Below are positions 3,422 to 55,115 of a stretch of DNA of 64,000 nt, piece after piece; position 1 is the first letter of the stretch; each line of letters opens with the position of its first letter. The DNA comes from Octopus vulgaris (lineage: Eukaryota), in contig OX597819.1 in NCBI GenBank assembly GCA_951406725.2, forward strand, positions 15,996,001 to 16,060,000, written 5' to 3'. A program made the translations under genes and the position numbers. A model generated the notes under the pieces. That model was not told the DNA's origin. It searched no databases and saw nothing but the letters and a program-made list of their open reading frames with translations.

Positions 3422-4255
3422 TTAGCTGGTGTACCCGGTAATCCCCGGGGGTAAAAATGTTCTATTGAAACGCCTTATTACTCCGATATACGAAAGCAAT
3501 TTCTTTATAACTGCCAACAAACGTGTATTTTCCGTCACGAAAAAGTACAAAAAAAAGTACAATTTCTCCCTCCTGTCCGCTGGAGGAGGGAGAAATTGTT
3601 AGAGGTTGGCGAGAGAGGTTTTCGGATGTTGGCGAGAGGCAAAGACATTATTCTGCTTAGTGAAGGCATCTGGGAAATGTATAACTGCTGTCATTCACAG
3701 AAAAAAACTATTGTTTTACTGTGAGAAAAGCACTGTTGAAGTGTTACGTGAAATTTGGCAATCGAAGATGTAACCCAGGCAATGCATGCATGAAGCCACT
3801 ACTAATACGTTGTGGAATAAAAAAAATATCTACAGTCATAGAAAAAGTGTAACTTTAAAAATGCAGAATTATCAGTGTAATGGAAAGTCAGAAAAGTATG
3901 TATGTATAGAAATGTATGAATGAAGTCTTTAAGGTTTACGATTCAAATTAAGGAAGTACAATAATAATGTTTAGCAGTTCAAAACTGTGAGTAGTGAAAG
4001 GCAGAATTAGGTCGACTGATCATCAGAACCAAATATTGATCGCTTCGCTAAAACCTGCAGGTAGTATGGGTTATTTCCCTTGGGTTGTTTAAATAAAATA
4101 TTAGTAATATGTAGCAGATACAATGATCCATTGGAAGGGCCTTATTATCGATTTTTTCAACAATCTAAGTATGTCACGAGGTCTCCAGACATGAGTTATA
4201 CTCACGTGTCGAGTTTCATCAAAATCAATAAAACGATGTAGGAGGAGTTAGCTGC
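3422..4255 (-). mobile_element. Non-autonomous Helitron-like element (degenerate)
   Basis: Minus strand ends with hairpin CCCGG-GGATTA-CCGGG, then CTAA|T; contains GTTTCATCAAAATC, also present in the Helitron at 41150-41526; 5' boundary approximate. Confidence 0.55.
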
Positions 4256-4444
4256 TGTAATCATCGGAAGTAAGCTAGAACGTTAAGACTTAGTGCGTAT
4301 GCACAGCAGAGTCAATCTGTACAAAGCGGCTTCACTCTCCGTGCTTTAGCTTTGTTACTATGGCAACAGTCCAGATACTTATTGATCAAACCATGTATAT
4401 AAATGTATGAATGTATGCATGCGTTTATGTATTCATATATTCTT

Positions 4445-4680
4445 TTATTCTTTTATTCTTTTATTTGTTTCAGTCATTTGACTGTAGCCATGCTGGGGCA
4501 CTGCCTCTAGTCGAACAAATCGACCCCAGAACTTATTCCTTGTAAGCCCAGTACTTATTATATCGGCCTCTTTGCCGAACCGCTAAATTTACAGGGACGT
4601 AAACACACCAGCATCAGTTGTCAAGCAATGGTGGGGGGACAAACACAGACGCGCAAACATACACACACACACACACATAT
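4445..4680 (-). mobile_element. SINE family A, 3' half
   Basis: Reverse complement matches the 3' half of 6189-6583. Confidence 0.85.
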
Positions 4681-5237
4681 ACACACAATATTCAATAGTT
4701 AATTCTTGACTTCTTCACTAGGAAAACCAATAAATATCTATTTAAAAAAACTTCCTAAAGAAAATCCTGGTCAAGATGTATGTGTATGTACATTCAGAAT
4801 TACCAGATAAGGAGCTATATTCTATTTCAAATTAATATTTAAACTTTCTTAAACGTCATCTATCATACCCCTATGTTTCTAAGTAAATTCGAAGTTAGAA
4901 CTACCAAGTGAGATTGATTAATAGTTTAAATAGGTTTTATTTTATTTAAGCACTTCAGAAAAGTCAATAATCCACCGACAATCTAGGTATTATATGTTGC
5001 ATTAATTATCTAAAAACAGCTAGATAAATTTAAAAGAAAGAAACTCCTGTAAACTCCTGTAAAGATATATTTAAAGGGGACCGCTTACGTGATTATCGTA
5101 AAATTTAATAAAAGTAATATTGAGCTACACTTTGTATTGAAGAAAAGTTTCTTTAAAACAATAAAAAAGTTATGTTCTCGATATATTTGCTTACAGCGAA
5201 ATTATTATGTATTTCCTAAAAGGGAAGAGCGAAAACT

Positions 5238-5319
<82 letters not shown>

Positions 5320-5557
5320 TATATACATATATACATATATGTATGTACATACCTATATATATATATATATAAAAACGTAGACAAAATGAGAAACAAGAAC
5401 ATAAAAAACAAAAACATAGAAAACGAACTTTTTTTCGAAGAATGTAAGAAACAAACCAACAGAGAAACGAGACAGGCAACATAAAGAACATTCCCTTCAT
5501 CAGTTGTTCCCTGTTTTATCTACTCCGCGTTTCTAAATTTAAAAAATTTAAATTCTA

Positions 5558-19410: not shown

Positions 19411-20989
19411 AGTACACACACATACATACACACACATATATATATATACACACGCACACACACACATCTATAACATATATATATTATGTTAATATATGTT
19501 ATGTTACAATATATGCGCTGTTATATATTATGCTACAATAGATATTATGTTGATATGTATTATGTTTCCCACTCAGTTTTTAGATTTTAAATACCTCTAG
19601 ACGAAATGTTTGACTAAAAAATGTGTGGAAAATCTCAGTGTTGTGTTCTGTAAAGATCCACTACACTCAGATGAATATGAGTACGAATAGCGCCGGGTTC
19701 GAGTAGAGCTGGAGGTTAATCCTACGGAAGCCGTATGTCCTCGAAAATCTGAGTAACTCGGGCCTCATGAACTTGTAGGCTTGACCTCCTCATCAGACCC
19801 TTATGAACCTGCATGTTCGATGTAGAATATGGATATTTACAAATTCTTTCTGAAATATTTACTAATTCTTCCTCAAATCCAATCCCTTATTGTCTGACAA
19901 CAGGGAAAGACAAATCGGAAAATATTCACATCTGATGTCTCTTGGCCATATATCTGCTTGACCAGGTTTAGCCAAAGGAAAAAAAAGACCTCTGACGAGC
20001 TAGATCGAAATCTGTCCTTTCCTTTCACCATTTGCCTTCACTCAATATGGTCTATATTTTTCGGTCAACTGATCCCTTTTTTTTTTCATGTCTACTGATT
20101 ATTTGGATAATCTCAGTTGTTTGACATTTTCCAACTCACTATATTGCAGAAGGGAAGCCCTACTGTAGTTACTCCTAGATGGACTGGTCCATCTGAGAAC
20201 TGGCTGCCTTCGCCCTCGGCAATTCACTGCAGTTGCAACGTTGACATAGTTGGAATTTTGTGACATATGCCAAAATTGTAAATACAGAAAAAATGATAAC
20301 TAAACTGAAATCAGTTATAAGGGTTAAGTTACCCAAGGAGGTGTATGGTGAAAATGTGAAAGCAATTTTAATCGACAAGGAAAAATATAGCAAGTTGAAG
20401 GGAAAATGTCAAGTTGAACCACCAGGATTCGTGGTGGAGTTCGATGAACTACCGCCAGTAATAGAACTAAGTGAAATAGAACCATATATAAAAGAGAGAG
20501 TTAATTGTTGTTTTTTTTTTAAAAAAAGGAGGTGGAAAAGGAGAAAAAAAAGAGTAAACAAAATGATGCTAATAGTAAAAAATCACCGAAAAAGAGAAAT
20601 ATTATAAACTGGAAGTAAGAACGTTCAAATGGCACCGCATGTAAGTGGGGCGCATGCAGCCATTTCATCACCATCGGTTTCATTGTACATTTTTCCATTT
20701 TTCATTCGTTTTATGTTTTTTGTCCCCATTGTTCTGCTCTGTCTGTCCTTGCATCGTCCCCATCTGTGTATGAGCCTGAATGCTCAAATAATGAAGGAAG
20801 TTGCAACGTTGACAATAAATAAACCAACAGATTAGTTTTCCAATGGTCGCCCCGTGGTTGCTTGGATTATCACAAAATCGCTACAAAATATAAGTGAGCA
20901 ACCGTCAGTAGATTCGATACTTGACAACTCTCATCATTCTGAGACAATTCTAGAAGAGTTGCGTTGAAAGGTTATGAAACTGCCCCAGT

Positions 20990-21861: not shown

Positions 21862-22995
21862 TAATCCTTTCTACTACAAGCACAAAGCCTGAAATGTACG
21901 GGGAGGAGGTAAGTCGATCGCATCGACCCCAGTGTCTCACTGGTACTTATTTAATCGACCACCGAAAGGGTGAAAGGCAAAGTCAACCTCGGCGGAATTT
22001 GAACTTAGAACGTCGTGGTGGACAAAATACCTATTTCTTTACTGCCCACAAGGGGCTAAACACAGAGAGGACAAATAAGGACAGACAAACGGATAAAGTC
22101 GATTAGATCAACCCCAGTGCGTAACTGGTACTTATTTAATCGACCCCGAAAGGATGAAAGGCAAAATCGACCTCGGCGGAATTTGAACTTAGAACGTCGC
22201 GGTGGACAAAATACCTATTTCTTTACTACCCACAAGGGGCTAAACACAGAGAGGACAAATAAGGACAGACAAACGGATAAAGTCGATTAGATCAACCCCA
22301 GTGCGTAACTGGTACTTATTTAATCGACCACCGAAAGGGTGAAAGGCAAAGTCAACCTCGGCGGAATTTGAACTTAGAACGTCGCGGTGGACAAAATACC
22401 TATTTCTTTACTACCCACAAGGGGCTAAACACAGAGAGGACAAAATAAGGACAGACAAACGGATAAAGTCGATTAGATCAACCCCAGTGCGTAACTGGTA
22501 CTTATTTAATCGACCCCGAAAGGATGAAAGGCAAAGTCAACCTCGGCGGAAATTTGAACGTAGAACGTCGCGGTGGACAAAATACCTATTTCTTTACTAC
22601 CCACAAGGGGCTAAACACAGAGAGGACAAAATAAGGACAGACAAACGGATAAAGTCGATTAGATCGACCCCAGTGCGTAACTGGTACTTATTTAATCGAC
22701 CCCGAAAGGATGAAAGGCAAAGTCAACCTCGGCGGAAATTTGAACGTAGAACGTCGCGGTGGACAAAATACCTATTTCTTTACTACCCACAAGGGGCTAA
22801 ACACAGAGAGGACAAATAAGGACAGACAAACGGATAAAGTCGATTAGATCGACCCCAGTGCGTAACTGGTACTTATTTAATCGACCCCGAAAGGATGAAA
22901 GGCAAAATCGACCTCGGCGGAATTTGAACTCAGAACGTCGCGGTGGACAAAATACCGCTAAGCATTGCCGCCGGCGTGCTAACAATTTTGCCAAA
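21862..22995 (-). repeat. Tandem array of ~185-bp SINE-B internal units (6 bodies)
   Basis: ATC(G/A)ACCCCAGTG recurs at 21922, 22107, 22291, 22477, 22663 and 22848. Confidence 0.95.
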
Positions 22996-25939: not shown

Positions 25940-26450
<511 letters not shown>

Positions 26451-27632
26451 CTCAGGTGTGGTCGCCGTTTGTGAAGCACGCATTCCCGCAACTCGTCTCC
26501 ATGACCGAACTGCAGTCGTGGATCAAAAAGAGGCAGAGGAAGGGCGAATGGCACCGCGAGTGTCGCGTTGCTCTCAAGCAACTCTGCCGTCCCGGGTCGA
26601 CCTTGAGTGACTTCAACACAACCAAAGCATTCTATAGGGGATTAGTGGAGGGGAGGTACGACGACGATCTCGGGGCAAACCTGGGCGTCGACGAGGAATA
26701 CCTGACCCGCCTGTTTCAAACGACTTTCGGCCCGACCTATGGACAACTTCCAGAGATCCCTGGCCTGGCGGTGCTACCGAGAAGCGCTACCCGTTCGGGA
26801 TAAGCTCTATAGGCATGGCTCGAGAAACACGGGGCCGACCTGCCCGAGATGCGGTCAGAGCGACGAAACCGCTCTGCACGCAATCGTGCAGTGTCCAGCA
26901 ATTTCCGACCTGTGGGCTTATGTCAAACGACTGCTGTCACGTGTGGGACGTGTCGGTTTATCAGCCGAGTCTATCGTTAATATTGTCACGCCTCCTTCCT
27001 TCAAACGGGAAGGAAGAGCTATTTTTATCATACTTGTGGCTATGGCGAAAGAATGTATCTGGTGGACGCGCCTGAAAGGATTAGAGACAAACACTTTCCT
27101 CTCTGGTCAATCTCTCATCAACTTCTTCAAGTATCACTTGAAGAGGAAAGTGAGAGTAGAAAGGCAAGTTTTGTCTAGTGAATGTTTAAAAAAAATGGGT
27201 GAATGTAGCAAGGATGGCACGTATGAATGACGAAGCCACCTTGACTATGATTCTATGAACCGTAAAAAATTAATACAGAGAGTTGCTTATTTGCAAAAAA
27301 AAAAAAAAGAAATATAACATGTGACTTCATTGACCGAGGTTACCGTGGTCTTTTCCGTAGGCTTTTCTTTCCACGGGTAAACCTCACCTGTCCTCCCCTT
27401 TACACTTCATATTGACATATCTGTGATTACGATCCCTATTGATCAACTTTTTTTTTCCTCTCCCCTTTTCTCCCCCCCCTTTTTTAAATCCTCCCCTTTT
27501 TTTGTCCTCTTTCTTTCCTTTTACGATCCCTTTTGATCGAAAACCAACACCCTTTTTTTTACCCCCAAAAGAAAAGCTCTACCTTGTAATTTGTTCTGTC
27601 TGTGTGTAGCCTTGTGTGGCTAATAAAGAAAC
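26451..27632 (+). mobile_element. 5'-truncated Tx1/L1-clade LINE (ORF2 C-terminal zinc finger + 3' UTR)
   Basis: LAWRCYREALPVRDKL..CPRCGQSDETALHAIVQCPAISDLW = zf-RVT-type CCHC; (CTAT)n on both sides. Confidence 0.85.
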
Positions 27633-43099: not shown

Positions 43100-44150
43100 C
43101 TGTCTTCAACGAAAGTCTCTTCTTTAAATAGTTCATGGTTCATATGTAGACCTGCAACAACTTTCTACTTCGTTAGAAATTTCACTCCAGAAACTCGAAC
43201 GCGAGAGTGAACGAATAAACAAGAATTTCCATTCTCAGATCTGCAGATTTTTTTATAATGCTCTTCCATTTCAATGTTTCCGTTGTCAATCTCTTGATTA
43301 TGCCATTGCAACAAATCATCAATGTTTATATAACAGGTGTAAACATCAAGAGGCAACTCATTAATCAGACCAACACCCAATTGAGTTTCATTGCGAACAG
43401 TTTCTATTGGTTCTTTAAGTCTCTCAAAACTAAATATGTTGAGGGCAGATTTTTTTCCAAACGCTTTCATAGTTTCTTAGCAACTTCGTTCTATGCACCT
43501 TTTACTATTTTTACTGCATCCAGCACACCGAAATATTTCCAAATTTCTTTTAGCTTTTGGCCTTGAGCTGTGCTCATTCAATTCTGATCCCGGTGCACAA
43601 GTTCCGTCTCCAGCTGTAACCAAATAGAAAAGTTCGCTAATCTTTAGCTACTTCAACACTTGGCGTTAATAATTTTTCTTTTACAATGAAACTTCTCAAT
43701 CGCAAGCGCTTCCAAAATGAGATTCTTTCTTCAACATTAATAATGTGTGAGGATGATTTACCACATTTACTCGGTTACTTTTTTCTTGGTTGTGAACAAA
43801 TTTGCTGATTCAGCATCAGCGATCCTACCTACTCCTCACACTCTAACATTATGCTTAGTCTTTTTTTTATAGCGATGAAACCAGACATTGCTTGCAGTAG
43901 CTGGTTTTCTAATAAACGTTTATTCACAGCCGCCTTCTTATCTTTAAGCGTCATAAAATTAGATAAGGTTGTAGTACGAATAGAAGCTTGTATAATAGGC
44001 ATGCTTAAACGTTGCGTTTGATCAGTTAACTAATGTTGATAAAAGCCGTTCCGGGCGAGGAATGAAGAAGACCAGTTCTTTAATACTGATCTTCGTAGGT
44101 TGCAATGAGTGCACACTTTTCATTTCCTTCAAGTAGCTTTCTTTAACCAT
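43100..44150 (-). mobile_element. pogo/Tigger-like transposase fossil
   Basis: Minus strand TASNVWFHRYKK..HNVRV (CENP-B-type HTH), IINVEERISFWKR..SFIVKE (cf. FNvDETGLFWK), and acidic IDDLLQWHNQEIDN C-terminus. Confidence 0.65.
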
Positions 44151-48220: not shown

Positions 48221-48506
48221 TCACACACACATATATATATAATTTTAAATTAATAATAAAAGGGTAAAATTTATTAATTAAATTAATTAATATATCAATT
48301 AATTAATAATTTTACCAAGTAGATCGGTACGTTAAAATAACCTTTATAGGTAAAATTATACAAATATTTTATCATTATATACATAATTATAAAATTATGG
48401 TGGTAATAGTGTTTTTGACGTCTATTTTTTCGCTGCGTGATGAGGCACAAACCAAGCCCTTGTTATGAGTATGCATATAATTATAATATATAATATTATA
48501 TATAAC

Positions 48507-48582
<76 letters not shown>

Positions 48583-48699
48583 GAAATAAGGGCAAAAGAA
48601 AAATTCTAATGCCAAATATGCCGAATATAGACAAAATTGTCAATAACCATTATAATTTTTGCGTCTCGAAACAAGCCGATAGAAATTTCTAAACAATTC

Positions 48700-48770
48700 C
48701 GTTATTACCGTATTGGTCCCAATTTCAGAGTTATTTCATAAGAATTTTCTCCTCCTCAGCGATAAATACG
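48700..48770 (-). ncRNA. Complete type I hammerhead ribozyme candidate
   Basis: Minus strand: TATCG CTGAGGA GGAG [18 nt] CTCT GAA ATTG GGAC CAAT A CGGTA; all three stems present and an AUA site. Confidence 0.7.
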
Positions 48771-48788
48771 TTAGACATAAATGAAATA

Positions 48789-48847
<59 letters not shown>

Positions 48848-49676
48848 TATATAAACCAGGTTGATTCAGCCCAATATTACAGAAAGTTTCGTAATTGTCT
48901 TACAAACACCTTGAATGGAGGCGTTACGTCAAGTCCGAGACTGCCACTGGAAACTGGGGTGCCATTGGTCAAGGCGGATCACGTGATGTTGCTAGAAGTG
49001 AGATCTACATTACTGCGACAACAGATGTATTTAAAGGGATAACCTCTGTGCATGTGTGTGTGTGTGTGTATCTGTGTGCGCCTGTGAGTGTCAATGAATG
49101 TACACATTCACCAGTAATTTCATTATAATCACCGCCAAGACGGCGACGACGCCCTCCAACACCATCATCACCACCATCACCATCAATACCACCGCCACCA
49201 GCACCAGCACCAGCACCAGCACCACCAGCACCACCAGCACCACCACCACTACCACCATCACCACCATCACCACTACCTACACCACTACGAGTATCCTGTA
49301 AATTCCTTAAACTTACGTAAATAACTGAATTGTAGTCAGTGTTTGATGTTGTACGGGTTTGTCATGTGACGTACAGCTTTTACATCTCCTCCTAAATAGA
49401 GAGCTCCAGCTGTTTTATAGGCCTCAAATACTCTGATATGCTGTACTGGAGTTAGGAATTCACACATTGGAGACAAACGTTGTACATTTTCACACACAGA
49501 CACACGTAAACACCCTCACGCACGATCTCATACCCACTGCTACACTCTTCGGACATACACGAACTTACACGCACATTTGCTTGTGCGTGTTTATGGGTGC
49601 ACTTATAAAATAAGTACACAGAAACATGTGTAACAACAATATACATTCAAATATATAACCACATATATTATTATCC

Positions 49677-50714: not shown

Positions 50715-50779
50715 TTAAATAAATACCTATTTCTTTACTACCCACAAGAGGCTAAACACAGAGAGGAATAAATACCTGC

Positions 50780-52632
50780 ATGAAGACTATCATCAATAAC
50801 CAAAGAACAGATGAGGAGAAATGGACCATTGGAAAATCAAACTCAACCCCAAAGTGTTTTTCTCTTTTGCAAAAAACCACAAGGTCATTTTCCACTGTTG
50901 GCCCTCTAATTGATGAAAATGGCACTCTCCAAGATAATGCCAAAACCACGAGTGAGATACTGCAGAAACAGTACTGCTCTGTTGTTAGCAATCCTGATAT
51001 GGCTGATCTGGACTGTGTCAGTGATGTTAATCCTCAACACAATATATCGGGCATAACGTTTGATATCTTAGCGGCAGTAAACGAAATTAAATACAATTCA
51101 GCAGTAGGCCCCGATAGGTTCCCTGCTTGTGTCTTGAAGGTGTGTCGACACCATCTTGTATCTCCTCTTGCTAATCTGTGGAGGAACTCAATGGATGCTG
51201 GTTATATCCTTGAGAACTTTCTGTCCCAGTCTGTTTCAGTTTTCAAAAAAGGGAAACAAGTCCCTTGCAGTGAACTCCCGGCCGATCTCGCTCATCTCTG
51301 ATATCATCAAGGTACTTCAGAGGGTGGTGAGGTCACAGATAACCCAATTTCTTGAAAGCAACAGACTGATGAACCCCAACCAACATGGGTTCCGTAATGG
51401 AAGGAACTGCCTAACGCAGCTCCTGCATCACCTTGATGACATTTTGAGAGCTTTGGGAGAGGGCTCGAATACTGATGTCATCTACCTTAATTTCAACAAG
51501 GCCTTTGACAGCGTGGATCATAAGATCCAACATTGGTGTCTCTGGAAAGTTACTACAATGGATCAAGTGTTTTCTGACAGGCAGAACCCAACACGTTGTA
51601 GTCGAAGGAGTAACATTAAACCCTGCCAAAGTCAGTAGTGGTGTTCCACAGGACACTGTGTTGGGCCCACTTCTTTTCATCATCTACATCAATGACATTA
51701 CTGACATCACCCAGCACAGCAACATAAGAAACTTTGCAGATGATTCCAAGATCAAGAAGGTCATCAATGAAGTGGGTGACCGGGCATGCTTTCAGTCAGA
51801 TCTACTGGTTGTCATCCAATGCGCGGAAAATAATATGTTGCTGAACGAGGACAAATTTCGGAAAAGAGGATACTCTGAAACTCCCATACTCACTTCCTTC
51901 AGGTGAAACTCTCATGGCATCCAACAACATCGAATACTTGGGAATAATTGTGGACAACGACATAAGCTGGGCCACTTATATAAATTGCAAAGTTGACATG
52001 ACCCGCAGAATGTGGTCTTGGATTCTCAGAACTTTCCATTCGAGAGATATCCACACCATTATCCCCCACTTCTCTACTTTTGCTCGACCTCACCTTGAAT
52101 ACTGTTATTCACTGTGGTTTCCCCACACGAAACAAACTACCATGAAAAGTGAAGCACGTCAAAGGTCAATTACAAAAAAGATAGATGGCACGATAGGCCT
52201 TGACTACTGGGGGTCGACTAGAAAAGCTCAAGCTTTATTCTCTCCAAAGCCGTGGGCGCTACATCATCTGCACGATGTGGAAAATATTCCATCAGCATTG
52301 CCCAAATGATATTTGGCATCGCCTTTAAGATACGCCCAAGACTTGGACCCTGTGCTATATGCCCACAACATACATCATACTCGCAGCACATAACAACAAT
52401 ACGGTACAATTATTTCACCTCAATTGGCCCCACTCTCTTTAACATTACACCAAAACACCTTAACACAGAGACAAATTCCTTAAAAAATCCCCGGTTAGAC
52501 CTCCTACACGCGGATGTCTCGTAAATAATAACTCTCTCCTCTAGTTGGCCATGTTGTCCGATTCCTGATTTGAATGACTTTGCCAGGTGGTGACATTAAG
52601 TTAGACATAGCCTTGCCCAATACCGTCGAAAC
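50780..52632 (+). mobile_element. CR1-group LINE, 5'-truncated, frameshifted RT
   Basis: GPDRFP, RPISL, NQHGFR, DVIYLNFNKAFDSVDH, SGVPQDTVLGPLLFIIYIND, FADD, RPHLEYC. Confidence 0.9.

Positions 52633-54721: not shown

Positions 54722-55115
<394 letters not shown>

Follow-up and report, generated by a model that had tools for sequence, protein, structure and literature searches.

A 5′-truncated, hammerhead-bearing copy of a retrozyme-like repeat family between (TA)n tracts in the genome of Octopus vulgaris

What a complete hammerhead motif is doing in octopus DNA is the question raised by positions 48700-48770 of the stretch analysed here, which comprises 64,000 nucleotides of Octopus vulgaris (assembly GCA_951406725.2, contig OX597819.1, 15,996,001 to 16,060,000) and is referred to as the window. 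The window is animal DNA rich in microsatellites and transposons. A preliminary description had placed the motif in an ~200-bp island between two (TA)n tracts, on the same strand as candidate exons, where it could cut a host pre-mRNA. The answer has to begin with the motif itself. The minus strand at 48765-48705, from the 5′ to the 3′ strand of a 6-bp stem I, is a complete type I hammerhead with an intact core and proximal helices I, II and III of 6, 4 and 4 bp. All of the positions called for by the core criteria in PMC3088659 are present (C3 U4 G5 A6 N7 G8 A9, G12 A13 A14 A15.1 and U16.1 H17), and three helices that are paired beside the core close it, with helix I open. The C3-A9 segment is CUGAGGA (48753-48759, minus strand; N7 is the G at 48755) and the G12-A13-A14-A15.1 segment is GAAA (48723-48726). 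Stem II (48727-48752) consists of four proximal pairs, GGAG at 48752-48749 with CUCU at 48730-48727, followed by an AA/AA internal loop, a 5-bp extension and a UUAU loop; its 10.1-11.1 pair is G·U instead of the usual G-C. Stem III (48712-48723, AUUG/CAAU) has 4 bp including A15.1-U16.1 and carries the near-palindromic loop GGAC (48719-48716). Hammerhead numbering puts A17 at 48711 and U16.1 at 48712, with the predicted cut after AUA between 48711 and 48710. Stem I pairs 48765-48760 with 48710-48705 and, beyond a 2x2 internal loop holding an unpaired U1.7 (48704), is extended by three pairs (48770-48768 with 48702-48700), giving the full span of 48700-48770. Base by base, this agrees with the core, stem II and GGAC-capped stem III first proposed, with the predicted cleavage position and with the G·U pair, which is read directly in this copy; stem III is indeed a real one, and helices of 6/4/4 bp are canonical, unlike the minimal type found in the pseudo-LTRs (pLTRs) of Penelope-like elements (PLEs). 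Stem I, described there as 5 bp and extendable, is refined to 6 bp with the extension given above.

A descriptor demanding helices of at least 5, 4 and 3 bp matches once in the window and not at all in 300 block-shuffled windows. The core and the three-helix junction resemble the Rfam hammerhead families by inspection, yet none of the 4227 Rfam models matches the window or the motif, at the gathering threshold or at E<=10, nor do they match a subfamily copy with a G-C closing pair or four other loci. The long insert in helix II is probably the cause of this miss.

Stronger evidence comes from other copies of the motif. An alignment of 110 copies spanning it (that of the window and 109 taken from loci L001-L111) was obtained mostly through ribozyme-anchored searches, which inflates conservation; in it the fixed core bases are retained in 105-110 copies, and each of the four bases occurs at N7 (G 46, U 32, C 23, A 8). 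The core is intact in 91 copies and the core plus all 14 proximal pairs in 67, including that of the window, and 2028 of 2090 paired cells can pair. Pair 2.1-1.1 is GC in 72 copies and AU in 29, 10.1-11.1 is GU in 66, AU in 29 and GC in 11, 10.3 is AU in 67, GU in 27 and GC in 12, a distal stem II pair is AU in 78 and GC in 26, and 15.3 is UA in 74, CG in 23 and UG in 10. Compensatory changes between subfamilies thus occur in all three helices around a fixed core, and go back to a small number of events that many copies share by descent. Among 20 hand-picked copies 96% of cells are paired as against 25-46% in slid-register controls; two of five shuffle measures on the same copies are not unusual. 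Loop III is 3 nt long in two further subfamilies, and in one of these stem I pairs are altered as well. On this covariation between subfamilies, a comparison of sequences, the motif is taken to be a real hammerhead. The window copy differs from its subfamily by four private changes in 145 positions, an ordinary divergence for the family; one of these, at 48734, disrupts a pair of the 5-bp stem II extension. The 10.1-11.1 pair is described as the most conserved after 15.1-16.1, although change is tolerated (PMC3088659), and the subfamilies offer a natural series of G-C, A-U and G·U at this position.

Whether the ribozyme would cut efficiently is a separate matter. Positions 48770-48765 can also pair with 48714-48709, across the cut site, and in a folding model without tertiary terms the competing fold of the window copy is put at -13.3 kcal/mol versus -9.8 for the hammerhead, a gap of about 3.5 kcal/mol that leaves the hammerhead fold a probability of about 0.001. 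The competing fold is therefore predicted to dominate in the window copy. As a predicted gap of 2.9-4.2 kcal/mol favours it in all four subfamilies, it is a trait of the family. Other features bear on activity. U1.7 is unpaired in 104 of 110 copies and an A immediately preceding the 3′ strand of stem II is present in all 110, which fits the U1.7-A Hoogsteen contact between loops described in PMC11875169; here that A sits in an internal loop. AUA is a natural yet slower cleavage triplet according to PMC1636495. It is plausible that the hammerhead acts as a monomer, and a double hammerhead is also possible because loop III is near-palindromic; the double mode is reported for most metazoan motifs, in which helix III has just 1-2 bp (PMC4209133). 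For Xenopus retrozyme dimers, one of nine tested is reported to have cleaved in vitro (Li, Clavereau & Pollet 2026, bioRxiv 10.64898/2026.07.22.740005).

The island between the (TA)n tracts turns out to be one of many. A search of the 2.8-Gb genome with the 208 bases that separate the tracts produced 2147 candidates, of which 43 are scored matches, at 93-100% identity. The copy-number search proposed in the preliminary description yields 104, 831, 1035 and 1611 exact genome-wide matches to four motifs (831 for the degenerate core plus stem II) and none to reversed-pattern controls, and a subfamily B motif has 418 matches with at most two mismatches. The family thus occupies roughly a thousand sites in the genome, or more. 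In the flanks of the copies a longer unit is seen, repeating head to tail, and the predicted cut at 48711|48710 coincides with its head-to-tail junction. From cut to cut the unit measures 466 nt in L028 and 457-480 nt, with a GC content of 30-34%, at 10 independent tandem loci (13 rows in the tandem-unit table, three of them duplicated). The notion of a self-contained ~200-bp island therefore does not hold: the piece in the window is one truncated insertion among the many made by a mobile repeat. It is a 209-bp, 5′-truncated copy of the ~466-bp retrozyme-like unit (48584-48792, minus strand, subfamily A) that spans unit positions 385-466 and then 1-127, counted from the cut site, and it is 94-95% identical to the L028 unit.

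The unit is short and non-coding with one type I hammerhead each, it is low in GC (<45%) and self-paired, and as a circle it folds better than shuffled sequences (z of -2.2 to -7.4, 12 shuffles each). Tandem copies with at least two ribozymes exist in the family; the window copy has one and is a solo derivative, a kind of copy also reported in Li et al. 2026. Mapped copies have no terminal repeats and no fixed termini, and no ORF linked to the unit was found in the sampled loci. Immediately upstream of the ribozyme (unit ~330-395) a long hairpin is predicted in units of both subfamilies A and B (L018, L077) despite about 20% divergence between them; it is mostly missing from the window copy. 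DNA depth raised over unit ~113-190 had suggested a segment in common with another element; 30 loci gave just more subfamilies of the unit. Contigs of putative RNA runs cover the unit and one joins its end to its start; DNA contigs show the same join, such contigs reveal neither ends nor strand, and this was set aside as a sign of circular RNA. A related unit is found under a second organism label (L076 1451-1928; runs X9 and X10, only guessed to be RNA), where the same contig, which takes in flanking DNA, has core position A6 altered in two studies.

How such copies arise can be read from their ends. Both flanking tracts noted at the outset are there, (TA)n at 48482-48582 adjoining the 3′ end of the element, where it is the likely priming and target site, and (TA)n at 48791-48853 adjoining the truncated 5′ end. 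In a survey of 239 distinct segments of at least 60 nt, in which overlapping loci may count twice, 107 of the 3′ ends lie at unit 120-162, 88 at 220-246 and 44 elsewhere, so that 195 fall within two windows of the unit, and the 5′ ends are scattered across it. (TA)4 adjoins 175 of the 3′ ends versus 40 of the 5′ ends, against a background of 8.7% in the window: (TA)n tracts are the usual landing site of the family. Segments longer than one unit number 61 and longer than two units 3, with a maximum of 1227 nt; arrays are short, at most 2.6 tandem units in 3-kb loci, and at 73 of 150 loci a piece at the 5′ end is inverted. The 5′ ends rarely stop at the cut. In two samples of copies that were selected through motifs lying downstream of the cut, in which three insertions appear twice, 1 of 30 and 0 of 20 end within 5 nt of the cut site, and 16 of 30 and 13 of 20 cross it. 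Because 5′ ends cross the cut rather than stop there, the template was not a cut linear monomer and is therefore a ligated circle or an uncut concatemer, the read-through fitting both equally. Neither a poly(A) tail nor a fixed 3′ end is seen in the copies, which have instead two internal 3′ ends and circular permutation. These marks are those described for PLE insertions (Craig et al. 2021, PMC8557442), and the several internal 3′ ends fit what Frangieh et al. 2024 (PMC11167929) showed of internal initiation on AT-rich DNA.

Very probably, then, the window copy is a 5′-truncated non-LTR retrozyme that was copied into (TA)n by the reverse transcriptase/endonuclease of a PLE from a circular or concatemeric RNA. 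Such an insertion would start with transcription of a locus with two or more ribozymes, from which the hammerheads would excise unit-length RNA that could then be ligated into a circle. A PLE protein would nick a (TA)n target and prime at one of two AU-rich sites inside the unit, ~+127 to +160 or ~+225 to +235 from the cut, and reverse transcription would run backwards through the cut-site junction and stop early. With its one ribozyme the window copy alone cannot release unit-length RNA and most likely represents a dead end, one that might inefficiently cut a passing transcript.

A candidate for the PLE partner is present in the genome. A PLE reverse transcriptase fragment beside one locus led to a search for PLE families, in which a young, high-copy PLE accounted for 150 scored matches out of 8749 candidates; in many of them an 811-aa frame is intact (L142-L147, e.g., L142 2327-4759, plus strand). 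This frame has an RVT_1 domain followed by a cysteine motif and a GIY-YIG-type end, the latter two recognized by eye, and lies downstream of another frame of ~495 aa. Autonomous PLEs thus share the genome with the retrozyme, and other PLE families are present as well. Like the retrozyme copies, the 811-aa element targets (TA)n, ends at two 3′ positions and shows partial tandems as well as inversions. It remains just a candidate helper because the two families have no significant DNA similarity and a simple scan of the element finds no convincing hammerhead; Craig et al. 2021 (PMC8557442) describe hammerheads as universal in PLEs outside Naiad and Chlamys. A more specific proposal, that a (TA)n-targeting PLE protein uses the two internal sites to prime on a ligated ~466-nt circle and then runs on through the junction, and that its source may be the 811-aa element, is tentative and somewhat doubtful. 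In the locus L111 a second repeat lies in (TA)n (3639-5415) as near-identical units of about 360 bp, in tandem plus inverted copies, and a similar one is found in L006 at about 2000-2600. It has no match in Rfam and no hammerhead by eye, and is possibly another non-autonomous element mobilised by PLEs.

The closest rival makes the unit a part of a PLE. It could be the pLTR or 3′ tail of an undiscovered autonomous element, its copies being 5′-truncated insertions of that element with no retrozyme cycle of their own. PLE pLTRs typically carry hammerheads (PMC4209133; Craig et al. 2021), the insertion anatomy is of the PLE type, and the loci examined are about 200, many overlapping, of at least 1000. 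The unit would then be expected beside a PLE frame, and instead every copy that is long enough wraps into another unit, as the 61 of 239 segments exceeding one unit do. With a PLE protein as query, tblastn finds PLE coding sequence at 7 of 140 retrozyme loci and at 0 of 60 further ones. By eye, the hits at L018 and L166 are separate neighbours, and by coordinates the other five are unjoined; among these about 200 partly overlapping loci no PLE ORF is joined upstream of the unit and no unit is contiguous with an RT/GIY-YIG ORF. One locus with a pLTR-ORF-pLTR look, L111, where two same-strand ribozymes are 2.9 kb apart, proved to be a local duplication around another repeat. The 6/4/4-bp helices also differ from the minimal pLTR type as it is presented in PMC4209133. 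All this makes the pLTR reading unlikely.

Far less room is left for a cis-regulatory role in which the copy would cleave a host pre-mRNA, as first suggested. Its core and 14 proximal pairs are intact, and a sense-strand transcript through the copy could in principle be cut. A host regulatory hammerhead would be single-copy, conserved and within a transcription unit; here the insertion is a high-copy repeat and no gene is found. A Pfam search of 118 non-repetitive window ORFs of at least 62 aa detects no host gene family, with three reverse-transcriptase-related hits and one weak hit below the cut-off. The candidate exons likewise find no confirmation in Pfam, own-genome and homologue searches of such ORFs. 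Nearby on the minus strand, the one single-copy ORF is a protein-like stop-to-stop frame of 103 aa at 43168-43476, with no Pfam hit and no homologue among longer proteins, which is weak evidence against a gene. The divergence of the window copy is no more than the family shows, one private change even breaks a stem II pair, and the competing fold is predicted to dominate. The searches covered frames of 62 aa and more, so that a position in an intron between short exons is conceivable; nothing marks the copy as special, and a regulatory role is very improbable. Least probable of all is that a LINE, or recombination at the DNA level, has moved a satellite or SINE-like repeat whose hammerhead is a non-functional relic: the lack of an Rfam match, a best predicted fold other than the hammerhead and a self-cleavage that is a prediction would allow it, and compensatory changes in all three helices with N7 free, together with two internal 3′ ends and circular permutation in place of a poly(A) tail or a fixed 3′ end, speak against it.

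Several other elements surround the copy. Broken LINE-type reverse transcriptase fragments with RVT_1 and zf-RVT hits lie at 50756-52309 and 26285-27230, both on the plus strand. At 21911-22956 a 186-bp unit based on the SINE-like repeat that is common in the window is repeated in tandem about 5.7 times. Minimal hammerhead-like motifs of the PLE pLTR type are seen at 55045-55088 and at 19992, again on the plus strand, the former following an (AAT)n tract.

The animal non-LTR retrozymes, exemplified by a 350-390-bp family in mussels, are the closest known system (PMC7229834; Li et al. 2026). As these sources describe them, they share with the octopus family one canonical type I hammerhead per non-coding unit, low GC, a self-paired unit, tandem and solo copies and the presence of autonomous PLEs alongside. 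By its sequence features the family meets the definition of non-LTR retrozymes given there. Its unit of 457-480 nt is slightly above the 150-450 bp of PMC7229834 and inside the 51-972 bp of Li et al. 2026. In contrast to the animal retrozymes so described, the octopus copies are mostly dispersed partial units rather than long arrays, and their hammerhead combines a 4-bp helix III with a helix II that contains an internal loop and an extension. The octopus circle is moreover predicted to block its ribozyme, whereas most animal retrozyme circles are predicted to leave it free. The PLEs, according to the accounts in PMC4209133, PMC8557442 and PMC11167929, have pLTR hammerheads of the same type I topology, and their insertions resemble those of the octopus family in being 5′-truncated, in their partial tandems and 5′ inversions, in targeting (TA)n or AT-rich DNA and in having internal 3′ ends at more than one place; the octopus unit differs from their pLTRs in having no ORF and in its full helix III, as opposed to the minimal, dimer-dependent form. 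A literature search found no description of this family or of any octopus retrozyme, and the supplements of PMC7229834 and Li et al. 2026 may list cephalopods. The words ribozyme and retrozyme are absent from the accessible text of a 2026 octopus repeat annotation (PMC13282606), and the giant squid genome paper gives 235 Rfam hammerhead hits, in its available text without detail (PMC6962438).

The locus in the window, one stranded copy, is itself of little importance. The family to which it belongs bears on a wider question, as mobilisation of retrozymes by PLEs through circular RNA is described as proposed, not shown (PMC7229834; Li et al. 2026). If a PLE protein does prime on a ligated circle as outlined above, the retrozyme and its helper would form a pair that can be identified and tested in vitro, and the conserved alternative fold would be what keeps the circle from cutting itself again. 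Hundreds of young copies are available in which the ends of insertions, their inversions and their passage through the cut site can be mapped, and since this record of insertions coexists in one genome with intact candidate helpers, the octopus makes the question of PLE mobilisation testable.
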